64,000 bases of DNA from Sneathiella sp. (lineage in GTDB: Bacteria; Pseudomonadota; Alphaproteobacteria; Sneathiellales; Sneathiellaceae), in NCBI GenBank assembly GCA_021741195.1, contig JAIOYL010000001.1, forward strand, positions 930 through 64,929, given 5' to 3'. Made by a program: the position numbers and the translations under genes. Positions 7,114 through 24,331 of the stretch are shown in pieces. The stretch's first letter is position 1, and each line of letters opens with the position of its first letter. The notes under the pieces are model-generated. The model was not told the origin of the DNA and did not search any database. It worked only from the letters and a program-made list of their open reading frames with translations.

Positions 7114-8166
7114 TTAAAAGCCGATTGCATAGGAGATGAGAAGGCCAAGGCCTTTTGAACTGACGTTATCTTCTTCGGCAACCCGCCAGGCGGCAGCGAC
7201 GCCGAGGCCCATGTCAAATTCGTAGCCGACTGTGAGATCGATAACGTCGTCGTCTGTTGCCACGCCCGCCGTATCCGTGTCGCGTCGCTGATAGGTGGTT
7301 GAGGCAACCCAGTTTTCGTAATTTAATGCAACACCAACAGTGAGATATTTCGCTGTGTCATCGCTGATGCCGCCCGAATTGTCGAAATAGGCGTATTCCG
7401 TCATCGGTGAAATCGTGACATCTTCGCCAATGTTAAAGGCGTATTCCGCCCCGACAACATAGCCCAGTTGGCGGCTGTCGCCGCCGTCACCGGCGGCGAG
7501 GGAAGAAAAGCCGGCATGGTAACGAAAGCCGGCGAGGCCGTTGAAGCCACCGTCAAGCGCAACGGAATAGGATGAAAAATCCTCTGTATTGGCAGGGCCG
7601 CCATCAGACTGAGTAAGGGGACCACGCTTTGTTCCAAGAGAATTGCTGAGGAATGTCGTGTCCTGAAAGAACGTACTGGCGGAGAAGGTATGCACGCCCC
7701 CGGCTTCGAAATTGACACTGCCGCCGAGACCGATCATTTCCGCCAGTTCATAGTCTTCGTTCAGATTGGTGCCGTAGATCCCCGGCGCGATCTCCCAGGC
7801 GATCCCAAAATTTGGTGTGAACTTACCGGCATAAAGAGAGTATCGCTCCGTGTCGTAGTTGGCCGTGATGATATTCAGGTATCCGCCCAGATCCTGAAAC
7901 GCCCGGTTGCTTGTGGTATCCTCCACCGGTTCAAGCGTCGCCTCCAGATTGACAGAAAATTTTTTATTGAATGCGACAGTTGTTCCAAGAATGACGGTTG
8001 GATAAAGGTCATTTATCTCGGCATTCGGGTCATCCGACTGATAGGTCCAGTCATTTTCAATCTCGACAGAAAGTTCTCCGGAAATCCTGGGATAGTTCTG
8101 TTCTTCGGCAAATGCCGAAAAACTGGATAGGGATGCGAGGGAAGCAACAACTAACGCCTGTTTCAT
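7114..8166 (-). CDS. Outer-membrane beta-barrel/porin-like protein
   Basis: Signal peptide ending AFA, alternating amphipathic strands, very acidic loops, C-terminal Phe (YAIGF). Confidence 0.75.
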   Translation of the reverse strand: MKQALVVASLASLSSFSAFAEEQNYPRISGELSVEIENDWTYQSDDPNAEINDLYPTVILGTTVAFNKKFSVNLEATLEPVEDTTSNRAFQDLGGYLNIITANYDTERYSLYAGKFTPNFGIAWEIAPGIYGTNLNEDYELAEMIGLGGSVNFEAGGVHTFSASTFFQDTTFLSNSLGTKRGPLTQSDGGPANTEDFSSYSVALDGGFNGLAGFRYHAGFSSLAAGDGGDSRQLGYVVGAEYAFNIGEDVTISPMTEYAYFDNSGGISDDTAKYLTVGVALNYENWVASTTYQRRDTDTAGVATDDDVIDLTVGYEFDMGLGVAAAWRVAEEDNVSSKGLGLLISYAIGF

Positions 8167-8455: not shown

Positions 8456-10258
8456 TTGAGTGATCTGTTACCCGAGCTGCCTATGAAATCCGCTGCCGTT
8501 GCGTTATATGGCAGGCTTCTGCGTGACTATGTGATGAGTTATAAATGGCGGTTGTCTGCGGCGGTATTTTTTATGATCGTCAGCGCGATGACTTCAGCGG
8601 CCACGGCATTTGTGATGAAACCGATCGTCGATGAAGTCTTTTTTGAAAAGAATTCGGAATTCGTCCTGTACACAACTCTTGCCGTTATCGCCATATTTAC
8701 GGTGCGGGGGGTTGCAACCTACGGACAGACCATCGTCATGGACTGGGTTGGAACGCGGGTCGTGTCGGACATTCAGAAGGACCTGTTCAAGAGGCTTGTT
8801 TTCGCCGACCTGGCTTGGTTTCACAATAACCCGTCGGGCAATCTTGTTTCGCGTTTCGTATTCGACACCAATTTTTTGAAAACCGTGGCGACGCAAACAC
8901 TGGTTGTCATGACGAAAGATAGTCTGTCGGCGATCTTTCTGATCGCTTCGTTATTTTATTATGACTGGAAAATGGCGCTGTTTATCCTGATTGCCTTGCC
9001 ACCAGGTGCGCTCGCCATCCGACAACTTGGCAAACGTTCACGTAAGGCCGCACACAAAGTTTTAGAGCAAACAGCCGGTTTCAGCTCATTCCTTGAAGAA
9101 AATTTTCAAGGAATACGTGTCGTCAAGGCCTATAGCCGGGAGCAACAAGCGACGCGGCAGGGCGATGAAGTTATTGAGGGTCGCTTCAAGTATCAGTATA
9201 AATCGCTTCGGATTGAAGCCTCGAGCGGTCCGATCGTCGAGACGCTGGCCGGATTAATGATTGCTGGCGTCATCTTCTACGGCGCGAGCAATGTTCTCGC
9301 GGGAGTGACGACGCCGGGTACATTTTTCGCGTTTGTTACAGCCGTGATGCTCGCCTATCAGCCAGTCAAGAGCGTCGCCAAGATTTTCCCGCGAATGCAA
9401 AGCGGGCTGGCGGCGGCGCATAGGATATTTATGCTGCTTGATATCCGGCATAAGGTTGTTGACAAGCCGAGTGCAACACCGCTTGAATTTCACAAGGGAG
9501 AAGTGGAGTTCCGCCATGTACGCTTTGCCTATAATCCGGATGAGGTTGTTCTAAAAGATATTTCCCTGAAAATTGGGGCGGGAAAAAGAGTTGCTCTGGT
9601 TGGTCCTTCCGGGGGCGGAAAATCAACTATCCTTAATCTAATCCCGCGCTTTTATGACGTTGGCGCGGGCGATATCCTGATCGACGGCCAGAACATTCGT
9701 GATGTCACTTTAAGCTCGTTACGCCGGAATATTGCGCTCGTCAGCCAGGATGTTTTTCTATTTGACGACACAATCAGAGCAAATATCGCCTATGGCCGGG
9801 AAAATGCGACGGAGGATGAGATCATCGCAGCAGCGAAATCCGCTGCTGTTCACGGGTTCGTCTCCGCTCTGCCGAAAGGGTATGACACCCTTGTCGGCAG
9901 CCAGGGAGTCCGATTGTCGGGGGGGCAGAAACAGAGGATAGCAATTGCCCGCGCCATGCTGAAGGATGCGCCGATTCTGTTGCTTGATGAGGCGACGTCC
10001 GCGCTCGATACGGAATCGGAACGAAAGATACAGGTTGCTCTCAAACACCTGATGAAGGGGCGGACGTCGCTTGTCATTGCGCATCGACTATCAACTATTC
10101 TGGATGCGGACATGATCAATGTTGTTGTCGCCGGTGAAATTGTCGAGACAGGCTCCCATGACCAGCTTCTCATGCAAAAAGGCGTCTATGCCGACCTATA
10201 CAATAATCAGTTTGCCTTTGAAGGAAGTGTCACGCCGTTTCGGGAAATCAAGACCTAG
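8456..10258 (+). CDS. msbA: Lipid A export ABC transporter, MsbA-like
   Basis: TMD-NBD fusion. GPSGGGKST, LSGGQKQR, LLLDEATSALD and IAHRL motifs. Next to a GT9 gene. Confidence 0.8.
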   Translation: MSDLLPELPMKSAAVALYGRLLRDYVMSYKWRLSAAVFFMIVSAMTSAATAFVMKPIVDEVFFEKNSEFVLYTTLAVIAIFTVRGVATYGQTIVMDWVGTRVVSDIQKDLFKRLVFADLAWFHNNPSGNLVSRFVFDTNFLKTVATQTLVVMTKDSLSAIFLIASLFYYDWKMALFILIALPPGALAIRQLGKRSRKAAHKVLEQTAGFSSFLEENFQGIRVVKAYSREQQATRQGDEVIEGRFKYQYKSLRIEASSGPIVETLAGLMIAGVIFYGASNVLAGVTTPGTFFAFVTAVMLAYQPVKSVAKIFPRMQSGLAAAHRIFMLLDIRHKVVDKPSATPLEFHKGEVEFRHVRFAYNPDEVVLKDISLKIGAGKRVALVGPSGGGKSTILNLIPRFYDVGAGDILIDGQNIRDVTLSSLRRNIALVSQDVFLFDDTIRANIAYGRENATEDEIIAAAKSAAVHGFVSALPKGYDTLVGSQGVRLSGGQKQRIAIARAMLKDAPILLLDEATSALDTESERKIQVALKHLMKGRTSLVIAHRLSTILDADMINVVVAGEIVETGSHDQLLMQKGVYADLYNNQFAFEGSVTPFREIKT

Positions 10259-11225
10259 GGTCAGGACCCGCAGCCTTGGAAATGCTGCGATAGAAATTTT
10301 CGATTTCATGCAATACCCGGTCAAAGGGAAGGGGTTCTTCGTCAGTCTCTTCTGAATTCGAAGTCGGTCGCGTTACCGGCGTGCCGGCCGGTTCACTTTT
10401 AAGGCATAAGGTGCAATCGCCCCAGGGACCATAAACATCAGGCTTTCCGATCCCGAAGAGGCCGACGGTCGGAATATTTACGGCGACGGCGATATGCATC
10501 AGGCCGGAATCATTGCCAACGAAGAGATCGCATTGCGAGAGAATCGTTGCGGCTTCCATCGGTGTTGTTTTGCCAACAAGATTAATGACCTGCTGTTCGG
10601 GGAGCGCGTTCACCACTGGCATAGCCTGAGCTTCCTCTCCGGGTGCACCGAAGACGACGACACGAGCGCCCTCCAATATGCCGCCGACACCGGTTATCAA
10701 CTTCGCCAGCTTGATATAATTCTCATAATGCCATTGCTTTTGATAGAAATTGGCTGTTGGCGCAAGCGCCAGAATCTTTCTCCGGCCTTGCCGTGGACCA
10801 AGCCATTTTGTGGAGGTTTCGAGTTGCGCGTTTGTTGGAACAATACGCGGCGGCAACGGAAAATCGAGCCCAATCACATTCGCATTGGCAAGCGCCTTAT
10901 GAAGGTCATCCCTGCCGCCTTTCCAGATATGGTGATGGCGCGCCGGCAGAAAACCCAGAAGCGAGCCTCGAAAATCGACGATTCGATGCCAGTAGACCGG
11001 GCCAAGCGCGAGTGCAACTTCCGGCCAGTGGAGGCTGAAACGCCGCTTCTTCACTCCGATGACGCGGGCAACTCCCGGAATAGCTTCGAATATGCTTGTC
11101 GGGATGTCACCGCAGACAACTGTGATCGGGATTTCCGGCTCTTGTTCAAGGAGATAGTGCAAGACGCCTGTCGTCAGCACAGCATCTCCTAACCGGTTCG
11201 AGGCGACAAATAACGTTCGCTTCAT
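10248..11225 (-). CDS. Glycosyltransferase family 9 (LPS heptosyltransferase-like)
   Basis: SNRLGDAVLTT N-terminal motif, FVGNDSGLMHIAVA, TVGLFG. Confidence 0.9.
   Translation of the reverse strand: MKRTLFVASNRLGDAVLTTGVLHYLLEQEPEIPITVVCGDIPTSIFEAIPGVARVIGVKKRRFSLHWPEVALALGPVYWHRIVDFRGSLLGFLPARHHHIWKGGRDDLHKALANANVIGLDFPLPPRIVPTNAQLETSTKWLGPRQGRRKILALAPTANFYQKQWHYENYIKLAKLITGVGGILEGARVVVFGAPGEEAQAMPVVNALPEQQVINLVGKTTPMEAATILSQCDLFVGNDSGLMHIAVAVNIPTVGLFGIGKPDVYGPWGDCTLCLKSEPAGTPVTRPTSNSEETDEEPLPFDRVLHEIENFYRSISKAAGPDPRS
10255..10269 (+). repeat. CTAGGGT-N3-GACCC motif copy 1 (CTAGGGTCAGGACCC)
   Basis: Contains the msbA TAG stop. 12/15 positions are invariant across the three copies. Confidence 0.8.
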
Positions 11226-12611: not shown

Positions 12612-13631
12612 CTACGCCGACGCTTCGCCGCTGACACCCGCATCGGCAAAACTCGCCATCCCGTTATGGGTCGCGACGGCGCCTTTAATAATTCCGAGGG
12701 CAAGCGCTGCGCCGGAACCCTCACCAAGCCGCATCCCGAGTGAAAGAAGGGCTTCCTTTTTTAAGTTCCGGAGAAGATTTATGTGGCCGGGCTCCGCCGA
12801 CACATGGGCCGCGACGCAGTGATCAAGGGCTTCAGGGTTCGCCTTGTAAAGGACCGCTGCCGCCGAGCAGGCGACATAGCCATCAAGAAGAACGGGGATG
12901 GTTTTGTGCCGTGCTGCCAGGATTGCGCCGGCCATCGCCGCAATTTCCCGTCCTCCCAGATGCTGAAGAACCTTGAGAGGATCACCGAGGATTGCCCTGT
13001 GGCGGGCGATGCCTGCATCAATGACCGCAGCCTTCTTCTGGACACCTGTTGTTGATATGCCAGTGCCTGGCCCCGCCCAGTCCACTCCTGTGCCACCAAA
13101 AAGGGCAGCCGAAAGGGCAGCTGCGACAGTCGTATTGCCAATTCCCATTTCCCCGACGACAAGGATATCCGTATTTTTGTCAACGGCGTTCCAGCCGGTT
13201 TCCATAGCGTTCGCGCATTCGTTTTCGGTCATGGCAGGACCCTGGCTAAAGTCAGCTGTGGGGCGGCCAAGATCGAGTGCTTTCACGGAGAAATAGGCAT
13301 CAAAGGCAATGGCGAGTTGGTTGATTGCCGCGCCGCCCGCATTGAAATTAGCGACCATCTGCGCCGTGACTTCCTGGGGAAATGCAGATACGCCCTGATC
13401 GCATACGCCGTGATTTCCCGCAAAAACAATAACCTGGGGGTGAGCGTAAGTCGGCGGATGCTGCCCTTGCCAACCGGACATCCAGACAGCAAGTTCCTCG
13501 AGTTTACCGAGTGCACCCGCCGGCTTTGTCAGAACTGCATCGCGCGCCAGCGCCCTGTCGGCGGTGGCCTGATTGATCCCGGGCAAATTTGAAAGATGCT
13601 GCTGAAATTTTTCTAAAGGAGAGGCAGTCAT
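12612..13631 (-). CDS. cobT: Nicotinate-nucleotide--dimethylbenzimidazole phosphoribosyltransferase
   Basis: LTKPAGALGKLEEL, FAGNHGV, GEMGIGNTT, LGMRLGEGSGAALA. Likely start MTASP at 13631. Confidence 0.95.
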   Translation of the reverse strand: MTASPLEKFQQHLSNLPGINQATADRALARDAVLTKPAGALGKLEELAVWMSGWQGQHPPTYAHPQVIVFAGNHGVCDQGVSAFPQEVTAQMVANFNAGGAAINQLAIAFDAYFSVKALDLGRPTADFSQGPAMTENECANAMETGWNAVDKNTDILVVGEMGIGNTTVAAALSAALFGGTGVDWAGPGTGISTTGVQKKAAVIDAGIARHRAILGDPLKVLQHLGGREIAAMAGAILAARHKTIPVLLDGYVACSAAAVLYKANPEALDHCVAAHVSAEPGHINLLRNLKKEALLSLGMRLGEGSGAALALGIIKGAVATHNGMASFADAGVSGEASA

Positions 13632-15291: not shown

Positions 15292-16482
15292 ATGTCAAAT
15301 ATTTTATCGGGTTTCCGGGTACTTGATTTCGGCCGTTATATCGCCGGACCCTATTGCGCAACGGTTCTGGCCGATTTTGGGGCGGAAGTTATCCGTATCG
15401 AAAAACTGACGGGCAGCGAAGACCGCTATATCGCACCCCTCAATGAAGAGCAAACCGGCGACGGTGGCCTGTTCCTGCAGATGGCGCAGAATAAACTCGG
15501 CATGACGCTTAATCCGATGAAGCCTGAAGGACGCGATGTGGTCAAACGGCTGGTGAAGACGGCAGATATCGTTGTTGCCAATCTGCCCATCGAGACCCTG
15601 ACCGCGATGGGTCTCGATTATGAAAGCCTTAAAGCGGTCAAAGACGATATTATTCTTGTTCACGGCTCCGCTTTCGGTGACGAAGGTCCCTACAAGAACC
15701 GAGTCGGGTTTGACGGCCTTGGTCAGGCGATGTCCGGCGCCATGTATCTGTCCGGCAGCGAGGGCGAGCCGCGCAAGCTTTATGGCCCCTGGGTGGATTT
15801 TACGACTGCCTTGATGGGGGCTCTTGGGGCAATGGCGGCGTTGCGTCACCGGGATATGACAGGAGAAGGACAAGTTGTCGGGACCTCGCTATTCGGGTCC
15901 GCTATTCTGATTTCCAGCGTGTCGTTGTTGGAGCAGGAAATGCTGAAGCTCAACCGGGTTGGCACGGCAAACCGCGCTCAGGGCGCGGGGCCTGCGGATA
16001 CCTTTAAAACAAAGGACGGCTGGGTATTGGTGCAGTCGCTTGGCTGGCCGCTGTTTGAGCGTTGGACGAAACTTATCGGGGAAGACCATTGGCTGAGTGA
16101 TCCACGGTTTGACACTGATCAGAAGCGGGGCGACAATAATCATATCCTGTCAGAGCGGATGGCCAAATGGTGCGCGGAGAGGACGACGAAAGAGGCGATC
16201 GCGGAAATGGATGCGGTGAGACTTCCTTGTGGCCCTGTCATGTCGCCGCAGGAGGTATTGGAGGATCCGCATCTGGCTGCCATGGGACTGATGACGCGCG
16301 TTGCGTATCCAGGTTTCAATAAAGGTGTCCCGCTGACGGAATTGCCGATCAAGATGTCGAAAACGGATACAAAGCTAAAACACCGTGCGCCGACACTGGG
16401 TGAGCATACGGATCAGGTCATGGAAAGTCTTGGTTATTCCGCAGATGAAATTGCGGACCTCAGGTCCAAACGCGTTATCTAG
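15292..16482 (+). CDS. CoA-transferase family III (CaiB/BaiF)
   Basis: LSGFRVLDFGRYIAGP, LADFGAEVIRIE, RAPTLGEHTDQV. Confidence 0.92.
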   Translation: MSNILSGFRVLDFGRYIAGPYCATVLADFGAEVIRIEKLTGSEDRYIAPLNEEQTGDGGLFLQMAQNKLGMTLNPMKPEGRDVVKRLVKTADIVVANLPIETLTAMGLDYESLKAVKDDIILVHGSAFGDEGPYKNRVGFDGLGQAMSGAMYLSGSEGEPRKLYGPWVDFTTALMGALGAMAALRHRDMTGEGQVVGTSLFGSAILISSVSLLEQEMLKLNRVGTANRAQGAGPADTFKTKDGWVLVQSLGWPLFERWTKLIGEDHWLSDPRFDTDQKRGDNNHILSERMAKWCAERTTKEAIAEMDAVRLPCGPVMSPQEVLEDPHLAAMGLMTRVAYPGFNKGVPLTELPIKMSKTDTKLKHRAPTLGEHTDQVMESLGYSADEIADLRSKRVI

Positions 16483-16493
16483 GGTCATGACCC
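16479..16493 (+). repeat. CTAGGGT-N3-GACCC motif copy 2 (CTAGGGTCATGACCC)
   Basis: Contains the CoA-transferase TAG stop. GGGTCATGACCC is a perfect palindrome. Confidence 0.8.
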
Positions 16494-16506: not shown

Positions 16507-17196
16507 TTATTGCGGCAGCCAATGATCAAGGAAATTATTGAGCCAGGCCTTTAAACCAGGGTCGTACCTGCGTCGACCTTCAAACTGGGCCTCTGCGGAT
16601 TGCGCGCCCGGATCTGACAGCATATGGGCGGCTTTTGTCGCCCATCGCCTGTTCATGGCCTCTGTTACTTCAGGATGAAACTGGATGCCATAGGCATTTT
16701 TACCAACCCGGTAGGCTTGGTTGGGGAAAATATCGCCCGTCGCGAGCAAGGTTGCATCTGCGGGAAGATCGAAGCCTTCGCGGTGCCACTGATAGGCCTG
16801 CAGGGGTTCGGTAAAAAGAGGACTTCCCTTGTCGGTCGGTGTCAGCAGGTAATAGCCGATTTCGCGCATGCCTAGCCCATGTTCACATACTTTCGCTCCA
16901 AGCGCACGGGCCATGATCTGTGCGCCAAGACAGATGCCCAAATAGGGTGTCTCAGACTGCAGGATCAGATCGACCAGTTTCGTCTCTTCGCGAATAAATT
17001 CTTCATGATCATCATTGGCGCTCATGGGGCCACCGAATATGACGGCGGCGGTATGATCATCCATTGCTTTGGGGAGCGGATCACCGATTGCGGGAATGCG
17101 CATATCGAGCTCGAACCCTCGGGTTCGAAGCGCTTCACCGACACGGCCGGGATCGGAAGTCGCTTGATGCAGGACGAGAAGAACTTTTTTTGGCAT
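16507..17196 (-). CDS. Class I glutamine amidotransferase-like protein
   Basis: GGPMSAND, LGICLGAQ (nucleophile Cys), QWHREGF, GIQFHPE (His-x-Glu). Confidence 0.9.
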   Translation of the reverse strand: MPKKVLLVLHQATSDPGRVGEALRTRGFELDMRIPAIGDPLPKAMDDHTAAVIFGGPMSANDDHEEFIREETKLVDLILQSETPYLGICLGAQIMARALGAKVCEHGLGMREIGYYLLTPTDKGSPLFTEPLQAYQWHREGFDLPADATLLATGDIFPNQAYRVGKNAYGIQFHPEVTEAMNRRWATKAAHMLSDPGAQSAEAQFEGRRRYDPGLKAWLNNFLDHWLPQ

Positions 17197-22784: not shown

Positions 22785-23099
22785 GTGAGATTTCCCCCTC
22801 ACCTGATTGGAAAATTCTTCAAGTTTGTCGCCGTTGGCGCATTGGTCGGGATCGTCTTTTCAATCCTGTTTATCGCGCTGCCCGTTGCCGGACTGTTGTT
22901 TCTGATCAGCGGCCTTGATCTGGGCTGGAATCTGCAATGGATTCCCTCCGCGCCAGCAATCATGACGTTTGGCGCAGGTGGCGGCGGCCTGTTCGCCACC
23001 ATCCTGTTCATAAAGGATCGCTATATCCCATACGTCGAGCAGGTTCCCGACTTTGAAGCGGATGCAGACGAGCCGGACTCAAACAAGCATCTTCACTAG
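22785..23099 (+). CDS. Small hypothetical membrane protein
   Basis: 104 aa, 2-3 hydrophobic segments, acidic tail. Directly downstream of folD. Confidence 0.55.
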   Translation: MRFPPHLIGKFFKFVAVGALVGIVFSILFIALPVAGLLFLISGLDLGWNLQWIPSAPAIMTFGAGGGGLFATILFIKDRYIPYVEQVPDFEADADEPDSNKHLH

Positions 23100-23110
23100 G
23101 GTACTGACCC
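23096..23110 (+). repeat. CTAGGGT-N3-GACCC motif copy 3 (CTAGGGTACTGACCC, extends to TAGGGT-N4-ACCCTA)
   Basis: Contains the TAG stop of the small membrane protein gene, 13 nt from the argG stop. Confidence 0.8.
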
Positions 23111-23122
23111 TATAAACCAGAA

Positions 23123-24331
23123 CTATGATTTCTGCCGGTGCAGCAGGCGCAGACGCAGCGCGTTGAGCTTGATGAAGCCCTCCGCGTCCCGCTGGTCATA
23201 AACCGTGTCCTCCTCAAAGGTCACATGCTCCATTGAATAGAGCGAATAGGGGCTTTTGCGGCCGACGACACTGACCCGGCCCTTGAACAGTTTCAGCCGA
23301 ACCGTTCCCGACACTTTTTCCTGACTCTTGTCGATCAGCGCCTGAAGCATTTCGCGTTCCGGTGAGAACCAGAGGCCATTATATATCAGCTCCGCGTAGC
23401 GTGGCATGATATCGTCTTTCAGATGCATGGCGCCCCGGTCGAGCGTGATCTGCTCGATGCCGCGATGGCCCTCCAGCATGACAGTACCGCCCGGCGTCTC
23501 ATAAATGCCACGTGACTTCATGCCAACAAACCGGCCTTCGACGAGATCAAGCCGACCGATGCCATTGGCGCCGGCAACCTTGTTTAGCGCCATCAGGATT
23601 TCGGCAGGGGAGAGGCGCTTGCCATTCAGGGCAACAGGATCGCCTTTTTCATACTCAATCTCGATATAGGTGGCGATGTCCGGGGCATCCTCAGGCGCGA
23701 CCGTGCGGGAATAGACATATTCGCCTGCTTCTTCCCATGGATCTTCGAGCGCCTTACCTTCGGCAGAGATATGCAGCATGTTTGCATCCACCGAGAAGGG
23801 GGCTTCGCCACGCTTATCCTTCGGGATGGGAATCTGGTTCTTTTCGGCGAACTCAATCAGCTTGGTCCGGGAATTCAGATCCCATTCCCGCCAGGGAGCA
23901 ATCACCTTGATGTCGGGGTTGAGCGCGTAATAGCCAAGTTCAAACCGCACCTGGTCATTCCCCTTGCCAGTCGCGCCATGGGCGACGGCGTCGGCGCCGA
24001 CTTCGCGGGCAATCTCGATCTGGCGTTTGGCGATCAGCGGGCGCGCGATGGAGGTACCGAGAAGATATTGCCCCTCATAGACTGCGTTGGCACGAAACAT
24101 CGGAAAAACAAAGTCGCGAACGAATTCTTCGCGCAAGTCATCAATATAGATTTCCTTGATTCCCAACATTTCCGCCTTGGCACGTGCCGGTTCCAATTCT
24201 TCGCCCTGTCCGAGGTCGGCGGTAAAGGTGACGACCTCGCAGTTATACGTGGTCTGCAGCCATTTCAGGATCACGGAGGTATCTAGACCACCGGAATAGG
24301 CAAGGACAACTTTTTTGATTGCTTGGGACAT
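23123..24331 (-). CDS. argG: Argininosuccinate synthase
   Basis: [46 protein letters not shown]. Confidence 0.98.

Follow-up and report, generated by a model that had tools for sequence, protein, structure and literature searches.

We analysed a window of 64,000 nucleotides of a Sneathiella sp. genome (GenBank assembly GCA_021741195.1, contig JAIOYL010000001.1, positions 930 to 64,929 of the forward strand), in which a 15-base motif, CTAGGGTNNNGACCC, supplies the stop codon at three convergent gene junctions. This genome (G000), a 3.38-Mb assembly of 220 contigs with 54.8% G+C, was produced from a lake-water metagenome, and the window lies on its contig C26. The window holds three exact copies of the motif, all on the + strand, at 10255, 16479 and 23096, with 0 expected and 0 matches in 100 dinucleotide-preserving shuffles; a search at up to two mismatches retrieved no copy beyond these three. 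The TAG of every copy is the stop codon of a + strand open reading frame (ORF) opposite a convergent - strand ORF. The original prediction, made from the letters alone, had reported these positions, the absence of further copies and the convergent arrangement, all of which the searches and ORF coordinates reproduced, and its gene names (msbA, GT9, CoA-transferase, GATase and argG) agree with Pfam (Table 1). We are confident that the motif derives from an IS5-family insertion sequence (IS) of the IS427-group type, and each 15-mer of the window is very probably a scar of such an element or of its 265-bp MITE (miniature inverted-repeat transposable element), with no evidence of a function of its own.

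Table 1. Relics and junction genes of the window (relics 1 to 3 are copies 1 to 3 of the motif).
Feature	Position	Strand	Description
MsbA-like ABC exporter gene	8456..10258	+	Pfam; TAG stop rebuilt by relic 1
GT9 heptosyltransferase-family gene (Glyco_transf_9)	10248..11225	-	Pfam; convergent partner, junction 1
Relic 1	10255..10269	+	C-TA + GGGTCAGGACCC; inverted-repeat tip matched 12/12; no right-hand TA
CoA-transferase family III gene (CoA_transf_3)	15292..16482	+	Pfam; TAG stop inside relic 2
Relic 2	16479..16493	+	C-TA + GGGTCATGACCC; 1 mismatch to tip (11/12)
Class I glutamine amidotransferase (GATase) gene	16507..17196	-	Pfam; convergent partner, junction 2
104-aa ORF	22785..23099	+	TAG stop inside relic 3
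Relic 3	23096..23112	-	+ strand reading C-TA GGGTACTGACCC TA; TA both sides
argG (argininosuccinate synthase)	23123..24331	-	Pfam; convergent partner, junction 3

At junction 1, the GT9 ORF runs through copy 1 and ends in ...GPDPRS*, as had been noticed, its final six codons (GPDPRS) being relic 1 plus adjoining base triplets within the variable C-terminal tail of GT9. Its stop is a TGA within the last msbA codons, and since congeners G009 and G002 use the same TGA, the overlap between both genes is older than relic 1; this msbA-like/GT9 convergent overlap amounts to 11 nt (10248-10258). At junction 2, the stop of the GATase gene lies 13 nt past relic 2. At junction 3, the Pfam search returned no family for the 104-aa ORF, whose C-terminus (...LH*) agrees with that of several congeners, in which the stop is TGA. 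Contigs of two public metagenome runs from lake water, which may include the source sample of the genome assembly, have an identical junction 1.

The position directly at stop codons could evoke an RNA element, i.e. a short hairpin right after the stop that ends transcription or shields the 3' end of the mRNA, and one context (10245-10285, - strand) indeed folds better than shuffles (z = -2.3), the only one to do so. However, the hairpin of the motif is only 4-6 bp long with no U-tract, 5/6 contexts fold no better than shuffles, the parent MITE described below had no match in an Rfam search, and the motif is not conserved across congeners, so that such a role appears barely credible. An intrinsic terminator (GC-rich stem of at least 5 bp, then a U-tract) was also considered and rejected, a terminator scan having found no terminator-like site at any of the three junctions, in agreement with the original prediction.

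The 15-mer pattern has 5 copies genome-wide, and the real unit is TA + GGGTCAGGACCC (+ TA), not CTAGGGT-N3-GACCC. The exact 12-mer GGGTCAGGACCC occurs in 10 copies, whereas 300 letter-permuted controls average 0.75, and this ~13-fold excess establishes the enrichment over composition on which the original prediction had made its case depend. The core almost always has TA directly on its 5' side, where it is present in 3/3 window copies. All TA-flanked copies with at most one mismatch (18/18, genome-wide) are intergenic or at gene ends, and most one-mismatch copies that have no flanking TA fall within long ORFs, as background matches would. TA-flanked copies number 6, 11 and 18 at 0, 1 and 2 mismatches, versus 0, 1 and 6 in reversed and 0, 0 and 21 in composition-shuffled controls, the latter making the excess clear only at 0-1 mismatch. 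The described restriction to the + strand holds for exact matches but is an artefact of a motif definition that puts CTAG left of a near-palindrome, copy 3 being closer to the family consensus when read on the - strand (TAGGGTCAGTACCC, 1 mismatch) than on the + strand (3 mismatches). Read on the - strand, relic 3 is TA GGGTCAGTACCC TA-G, with 1 mismatch to the tip (11/12); the right-hand TA of relic 2 has decayed to CG. Nor are the sites confined to convergent junctions as had been supposed, since among 15 genomic solo copies ~6 are convergent, 5 tandem and 1 divergent.

The parent elements were found in the same genome. Two pairs of inverted 12-mer copies ~253 bp apart revealed two copies of a 265-bp MITE, 94% identical (C81:12634-12898 and C167:2789-3053), with inverted repeats of ~32 bp starting GGGTCAGGA(C/T)CCAT(C/T)AATTT; the 12-mer is the exact inverted-repeat tip of the C81 copy. 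This element has the characters of a MITE, being short, non-coding, bounded by inverted repeats and a target duplication, present in multiple copies and matched by empty sites in relatives. In addition, a resident multi-copy IS of the form C-TA-GGCTCAGGACCT...GAGTCCTGAGCC-TA-G, with transposase fragments, was detected at no fewer than seven contig ends (at least 7). Four left ends (C29, C184, C152, C173) read C-TA-GGCTCAGGACCTATTAAATTTC... and are followed by an ORF beginning MSELLMLSEAQMRRLTPYFP, and three right ends (C4, C118, C124) read ...ATTAATGAGTCCTGAGCC-TA-G after the C-terminal 40 residues of a DDE transposase (75% identity). The interior of this IS is absent from the fragmented assembly, which leads to an under-count of transposase genes in this genome, and a 136-nt end query found no full copy in 30 relatives. 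The claim that the window has no partner inverted repeat or transposase stands, IS transposase queries having given no match on the window's contig; both partners exist elsewhere in the genome. Besides, a second, more distant IS5-family element is intact within a contig (G000:C112:3966-4656), its two frames being 40-46% identical to the transposase of a Kiloniellaceae element (L098).

Related elements outside this genome bear the same tip. Congener G009 contains a degenerate IS of 752 bp, which has the exact tip and in which an ORF matches DUF4096 (E 1.8e-17). Full IS elements (836-845 bp; individual lengths 845, 836 and 845 bp) with tips GG(G/C)TCAGGAC... were recovered from a Kiloniellaceae metagenome-assembled genome (MAG), Devosia alba and an Aestuariivirga MAG; those of Devosia alba and the Aestuariivirga MAG have the exact 12-mer at one end, and the Kiloniellaceae tip, GGCTCAGGAC, is the variant of the resident IS. 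The 845-bp Kiloniellaceae element (L098) encodes an ORFA with DUF4096 (3.1e-19) and an ORFB with DDE_Tnp_1 (2.3e-14) and DDE_Tnp_1_2 (6.4e-14), in two frames that together span NCBIfam NF033580 (IS5 family transposase) at 3-113 and 127-258. A scan of species-representative genomes found the end TA-GGGTCAGGAYCCATYAAT in at least 120 DNA stretches; among the matches listed, all those classified below phylum belong to the Alphaproteobacteria (orders Rhodospirillales, Hyphomicrobiales, Rhodobacterales and Sphingomonadales), a few being labelled Pseudomonadota only. These loci hold 35 MITEs, mostly of 262-265 bp. In Paracoccus zeaxanthinifaciens ATCC 21588, the exact tip heads multi-copy elements; this strain is the host of ISPze1 (IS5/IS427), present in six copies (PMC3281130), with which we infer these elements to be identical. 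The likeness to IS5/IS427 inverted repeats that had been suggested is thus substantiated, the 12-mer being an exact MITE tip and also the tip of IS5-family elements elsewhere, and this identity upholds the proposal of solo IS or MITE-end relics. An exact match to an IS5 inverted repeat, by which the original prediction would reduce its motif to ordinary IS scars, exists in the same-genome MITE and in congener G009 (10/12 in the resident IS).

Elements of the IS427 group (e.g. IS427, IS1248, ISPze1 and IS711; Paracoccus examples are given in PMC3281130) measure 832-865 bp, duplicate 2 bp, possess two ORFs with a frameshift, and have an IHF-like site within their left repeat (PMC3281130). The elements described here share with them short inverted repeats, the 2-bp duplication, the YTAR/CTAG target, and two overlapping ORFs, DUF4096 then DDE domain, joined by frameshift; the full elements, of 836-845 bp, are flanked by C-TA...TA-G and match NF033580, and the exact tip ends the multi-copy elements of the ISPze1 host. 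They differ in that the window has only 12-base tips and no IS, and in that the resident IS is known from contig-end fragments only, with a tip that differs at 2/12. An IS630/Tc1-mariner origin, our first guess from the CTAG/TA pattern, was discarded, the linked transposases being of IS5 type, not DDE_3. We also observed that a ~262-265 bp MITE family with ends TA-GGGTCAGGACCCATTAAT spans four alphaproteobacterial orders (L090-L168). A literature search found no paper quoting the terminal sequence of that family, and a search for the 12-mer and for described IS5/IS427 MITE footprints returned nothing relevant.

The distribution of the motif among relatives is lineage-specific. The 14-mer TAGGGTCAGGACCC is present in 8/25 genomes of the genus and in 0/16 outside it. 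At junction 1, ~20 congeners are without the motif, their msbA ending in ...REIKS followed by TGA, TAG or TAA; at junction 2, it is missing in 12/13 congeners, the exception being a decayed copy in G002; at junction 3, it is missing in 9/9. The alignment of orthologous junctions that had been recommended thus reveals empty sites in congeners. Junction 2 of G002 reads ATT-TA-GGAGCGCGACCC-TA-G-CTGCC, versus the empty ATT-TAG-CTGCC of G003, G014 and G001, which is a 14-bp insertion (TA-12-TA) with 4/12 bases now changed. Judging from its sequence, relic 2 (TA GGGTCATGACCC CG GCTTCC) is probably orthologous to this insertion; copy 2 is apparently common to G002, and copies 1 and 3 are not. Clean congener empty sites were also obtained for both MITEs (C81 and C167) and the solo copies of C162 and C142, G013 being exactly 14 nt shorter at the C162 copy and the C142 copy missing in G001. 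The C150 relic is common to G013 and decayed in both genomes (in G013, 3/12 bases plus an indel). Where it is shared, the scar decays at a roughly neutral rate. Genomes rich in solo copies also contain elements with the same tip.

These comparisons bear directly on the second proposal of the original prediction, a domesticated DNA site that a host or transposase-derived protein would bind and that would act, where convergent genes end, as a transcription roadblock or in chromosome organisation. The palindromic 5+2+5 core is a typical dimer-binding format, the junctions are without intrinsic terminators and the motif is ~13-fold over-represented, all of which would suit such a site. However, the orthologous junctions of nearly all congeners are without it, only 8/25 genomes of the genus have it, its decay is near-neutral where it is shared (G002, 4/12; G013, 3/12 plus an indel), only ~6/15 solo copies sit at convergent junctions, and the inverted-repeat tip explains the motif fully. 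Neither the absence at congener junctions nor the decay fits a site kept by selection, and we consider a domesticated role very unlikely.

Some further sites recall these insertions. In congener G006 (C129), the syntenic region has a relic-like TAGGGCGCTGACCCC at the msbA stop (L024 ~1500-1520), and the same contig (G006:C129) holds a 30-nt joined-tips remnant upstream of the CoA-transferase gene (L046:3206-3236); the syntenic region of the window may have been hit repeatedly in different species. Similarly, in G009:C39 (L246), the ortholog of G000:C162:5769, a different partial tip, TAAGGGTCAGATTACG, occurs at the same stop codon, G013 being empty, which suggests that the stop codon of the C162 site was hit independently in different genomes.

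The position of the scars at stop codons follows from the target of the element. Of 36 complete elements (35 MITEs together with one nested pair that contains an IS), nearly all are flanked by YTA...TAR, all 7 resident IS ends read C-TA / TA-G, and solo copies bear the same YTAR/TA flanks as full elements. The congener empty sites carry a single TA (GGT-TA-AGTA at the C167 MITE site and CTAG at the C81 MITE site), which, together with the YTA...TAR flanks, indicates insertion at YTAR with duplication of TA. The element thus inserts at the TA of CTAG, TTAG, CTAA or TTAA, with ends of the form TA-GGGTCAGGACCCAT(T/C)AAT...ATTAATGGGTCCTGACCC-TA. Because it begins with G and ends with C, TAG is rebuilt on both strands, and a TAA or TAG stop whose TA receives the insertion is restored as TAG for a gene on either strand; this restoration by TA + G accounts for the stop codons and the gene-end positions. 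The proposed capture of stop codons by the relics did not take place: the element enters the TA of an existing YTAR stop, its own first G restoring TAG. Such harmless insertions survive and accumulate at gene ends, including convergent meetings, and YTAR is the very sequence formed by convergent TAA/TAG stops that overlap by TA. At the C75 solo copy, the TAG stops of the two convergent ORFs (of 512 and 244 aa) each consist of TA and the end base of the relic. CTAG is rare in this genome (observed/expected 0.12 from base composition and 0.64 under a Markov model), and it provides the stop codon of a long frame at ~11% of CTAG sites versus about half of the solo copies, an excess that fits the purging of intragenic insertions.

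This behaviour is that of stop-rebuilding MITEs (IS630-type RUP, IS5-type MITEs, alphaproteobacterial Bru-RS/CIR), with which the present MITEs share a non-coding sequence of <310 bp, terminal inverted repeats, TA duplication at (C/T)TA(G/A), G...C ends that restore TAG, gene-end enrichment and empty sites in relatives. By contrast, the parent transposase is here of IS5/IS427 type, not IS630 (DDE_3), and the window copies are 12-base remnants, not MITEs.

The precise 12-base remnant, with its likely origin in the palindromic tip, is the only mildly new point of this analysis. The tip itself is palindromic (GGGTC-AG-GACCC), and for this reason GGGTC and GACCC recur as direct repeats in the left end (GGGTCAGGACCC) and in the right end (GGGTCCTGACCC). 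The solo 12-mer would be the residue after loss of the element interior: the 5-base direct repeats would sit at the foot of the hairpin into which the inverted repeats of the element can fold, and replication slippage between them would leave only TA-GGGTC(AG/CT)GACCC-TA, as in the 'nearly precise excision' of Tn10, the scar decaying neutrally afterwards. In Tn10, this type of excision is a transposase-independent copy-choice between short direct repeats at a hairpin (PMC12524634). Both cases leave a small palindromic remnant flanked by a target duplication once deletion between short direct repeats has removed the interior; unlike in Tn10, the remnant is here of 12 bp instead of ~50 bp, the repeats are of 5 bp and present only because the tip is palindromic, and both the collapse and its mechanism are inferred. 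We lean towards host-mediated slippage, and not another route, as the maker of the 12-base remnant.

Several features of the solo copies inform this choice. TA is present on both sides in 8 of the ~13 solo copies examined from G006 and G016 and in 9/9 sampled in G275, whose 2.7-Mb genome belongs to another family. Intermediate lengths also occur among the remnants, namely 12 + ATTAAT + 11 nt, ATTAAT being another palindromic word of the inverted repeat, and others of 30, 26 and 18 nt. Among 401 class genomes sampled, the exact 16-mer TAGGGTCAGGACCCTA was found in the Sneathiella genome (1 copy) and in G275 (18 copies) only; the 18 mutation-free 16-mers of G275 coexist with a single MITE plus three further ends bearing the tip. 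For the predicted 18-nt collapse product of a GGATCC-tip MITE variant, no exact match was found, and two related 18-mers were. We also observed that 6/9 sampled G275 copies give a long ORF its TAG stop (copies on G275:C1 are located e.g. at 7635, 16808, 201807 and 226135; L209, L211-L218).

A number of observations weigh against the interpretation of the motif as a collapsed element. Across 11 sites in 4 congeners, no orthologous pair of a full MITE and a 12-mer was found, which would have been direct evidence of collapse in place. The 12-nt product is far commoner than other remnant sizes, and this dominance, with the 18 copies of G275 versus one MITE, could mean a regular enzyme-made product. 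At junction 1, the GT9 tail equals that of G002 in length and uses the TGA stop of G009 and G002; the junction is therefore not a plain 14-bp insertion, and an extra small deletion or later change has to be assumed. Copies 1 and 2 carry TA on one side only, and the tip of the resident IS, GGCTCAGGACCT, matches the scar at 10/12 bases (differing at 2/12). Finally, three relics lie within 13 kb, with a rough p of ~0.02 against 15 random sites, before correction for window selection; a single burst is unlikely, since the three relics differ in age. Public-run contigs (5-9x depth) confirm junction 1 and the C81 MITE and have no variants, rare ones being undetectable at such depth.

The same element could also have left the 12-base remnant as a regular excision footprint of its transposase, cut-and-paste leaving palindromic tips on the donor flanks that anneal and are sealed, with one TA-12-TA per hop. 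Solo copies that far outnumber intact elements would be expected (18 exact 16-mers against 1 MITE and 3 other ends in G275, and ~10 solo copies in G006), as would the predominance of the 12-nt size, the proximity of the three window copies within 13 kb under local hopping, and the two central mismatched bases (AG or CT), which the annealing of two identical tips predicts. However, the remnants of 18, 26 and 30 nt suit varied slippage better than one fixed cut, the window copies are of different age, copy 2 being apparently common to G002 and copies 1 and 3 not, and the cointegrates seen in the IS427 group point to replicative transposition (PMC3281130). We therefore regard a transposase footprint as an unlikely origin, albeit one with a real chance of being correct. 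To our knowledge, no DDE transposase is known to cut 12 nt inside its ends, which also counts against it. A bolder version, to which we give a slightly slimmer chance, would make the palindromic 12-base tip an adaptation of this IS427-type lineage, transposase or host excision regularly leaving a sealed TA-12-TA. If so, solo copies would be a countable record of transpositions, which fits the three-copy trail within 13 kb, and each footprint would recreate two YTAR targets, seeding hot spots of re-insertion at gene ends.

The 12-base palindrome could even be conceived as a minimal mobile unit, or 'nano-MITE', moved by resident IS427-type transposases with duplication of TA. It is a valid inverted-repeat tip whichever side it is read from, inverted repeats of the IS427 group go down to 12-14 bp (Table 2 of PMC3281130), the YTAR/TA signature of solo copies is that of full elements, and the 11 sites in 4 congeners provided no orthologous MITE/solo site. 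Against this, two transposase-bound ends are not plausibly assembled on one 12-bp duplex, and partly collapsed intermediates exist. We know of no precedent for a 12-bp mobile unit either, and such mobility is highly improbable.

The reading of the window motif as a scar of an IS5-family element removes a false lead, a stop-codon palindrome resembling a regulatory or chromosome-organising site being transposon debris. For annotation, TA-GGGTCAGGACCC(-TA) flags sites where a widespread alphaproteobacterial MITE/IS family inserted in the past. Scars and MITEs of this family can change protein ends, as for the C-terminus of GT9 here and for a MarR-like gene elsewhere, whose N-terminus is replaced by a MITE. 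Moreover, the abundance of the precise 12-base remnant in the unrelated G275 (18 exact copies) would make it a convenient natural system for studying the deletion of hairpin elements in bacteria.

The MarR-like gene is the site of the C81 MITE (12634-12898; L231:435-699), which lies in a CTAG within codons 5-6. The empty form of this gene would read MKKAPRTLYLPRF..., and the right inverted repeat of the MITE gives an in-frame ATG, from which the gene can start MSPDPRTLYLPRF...; this new start is in the GPDP reading frame that the GT9 tail of the window also uses.

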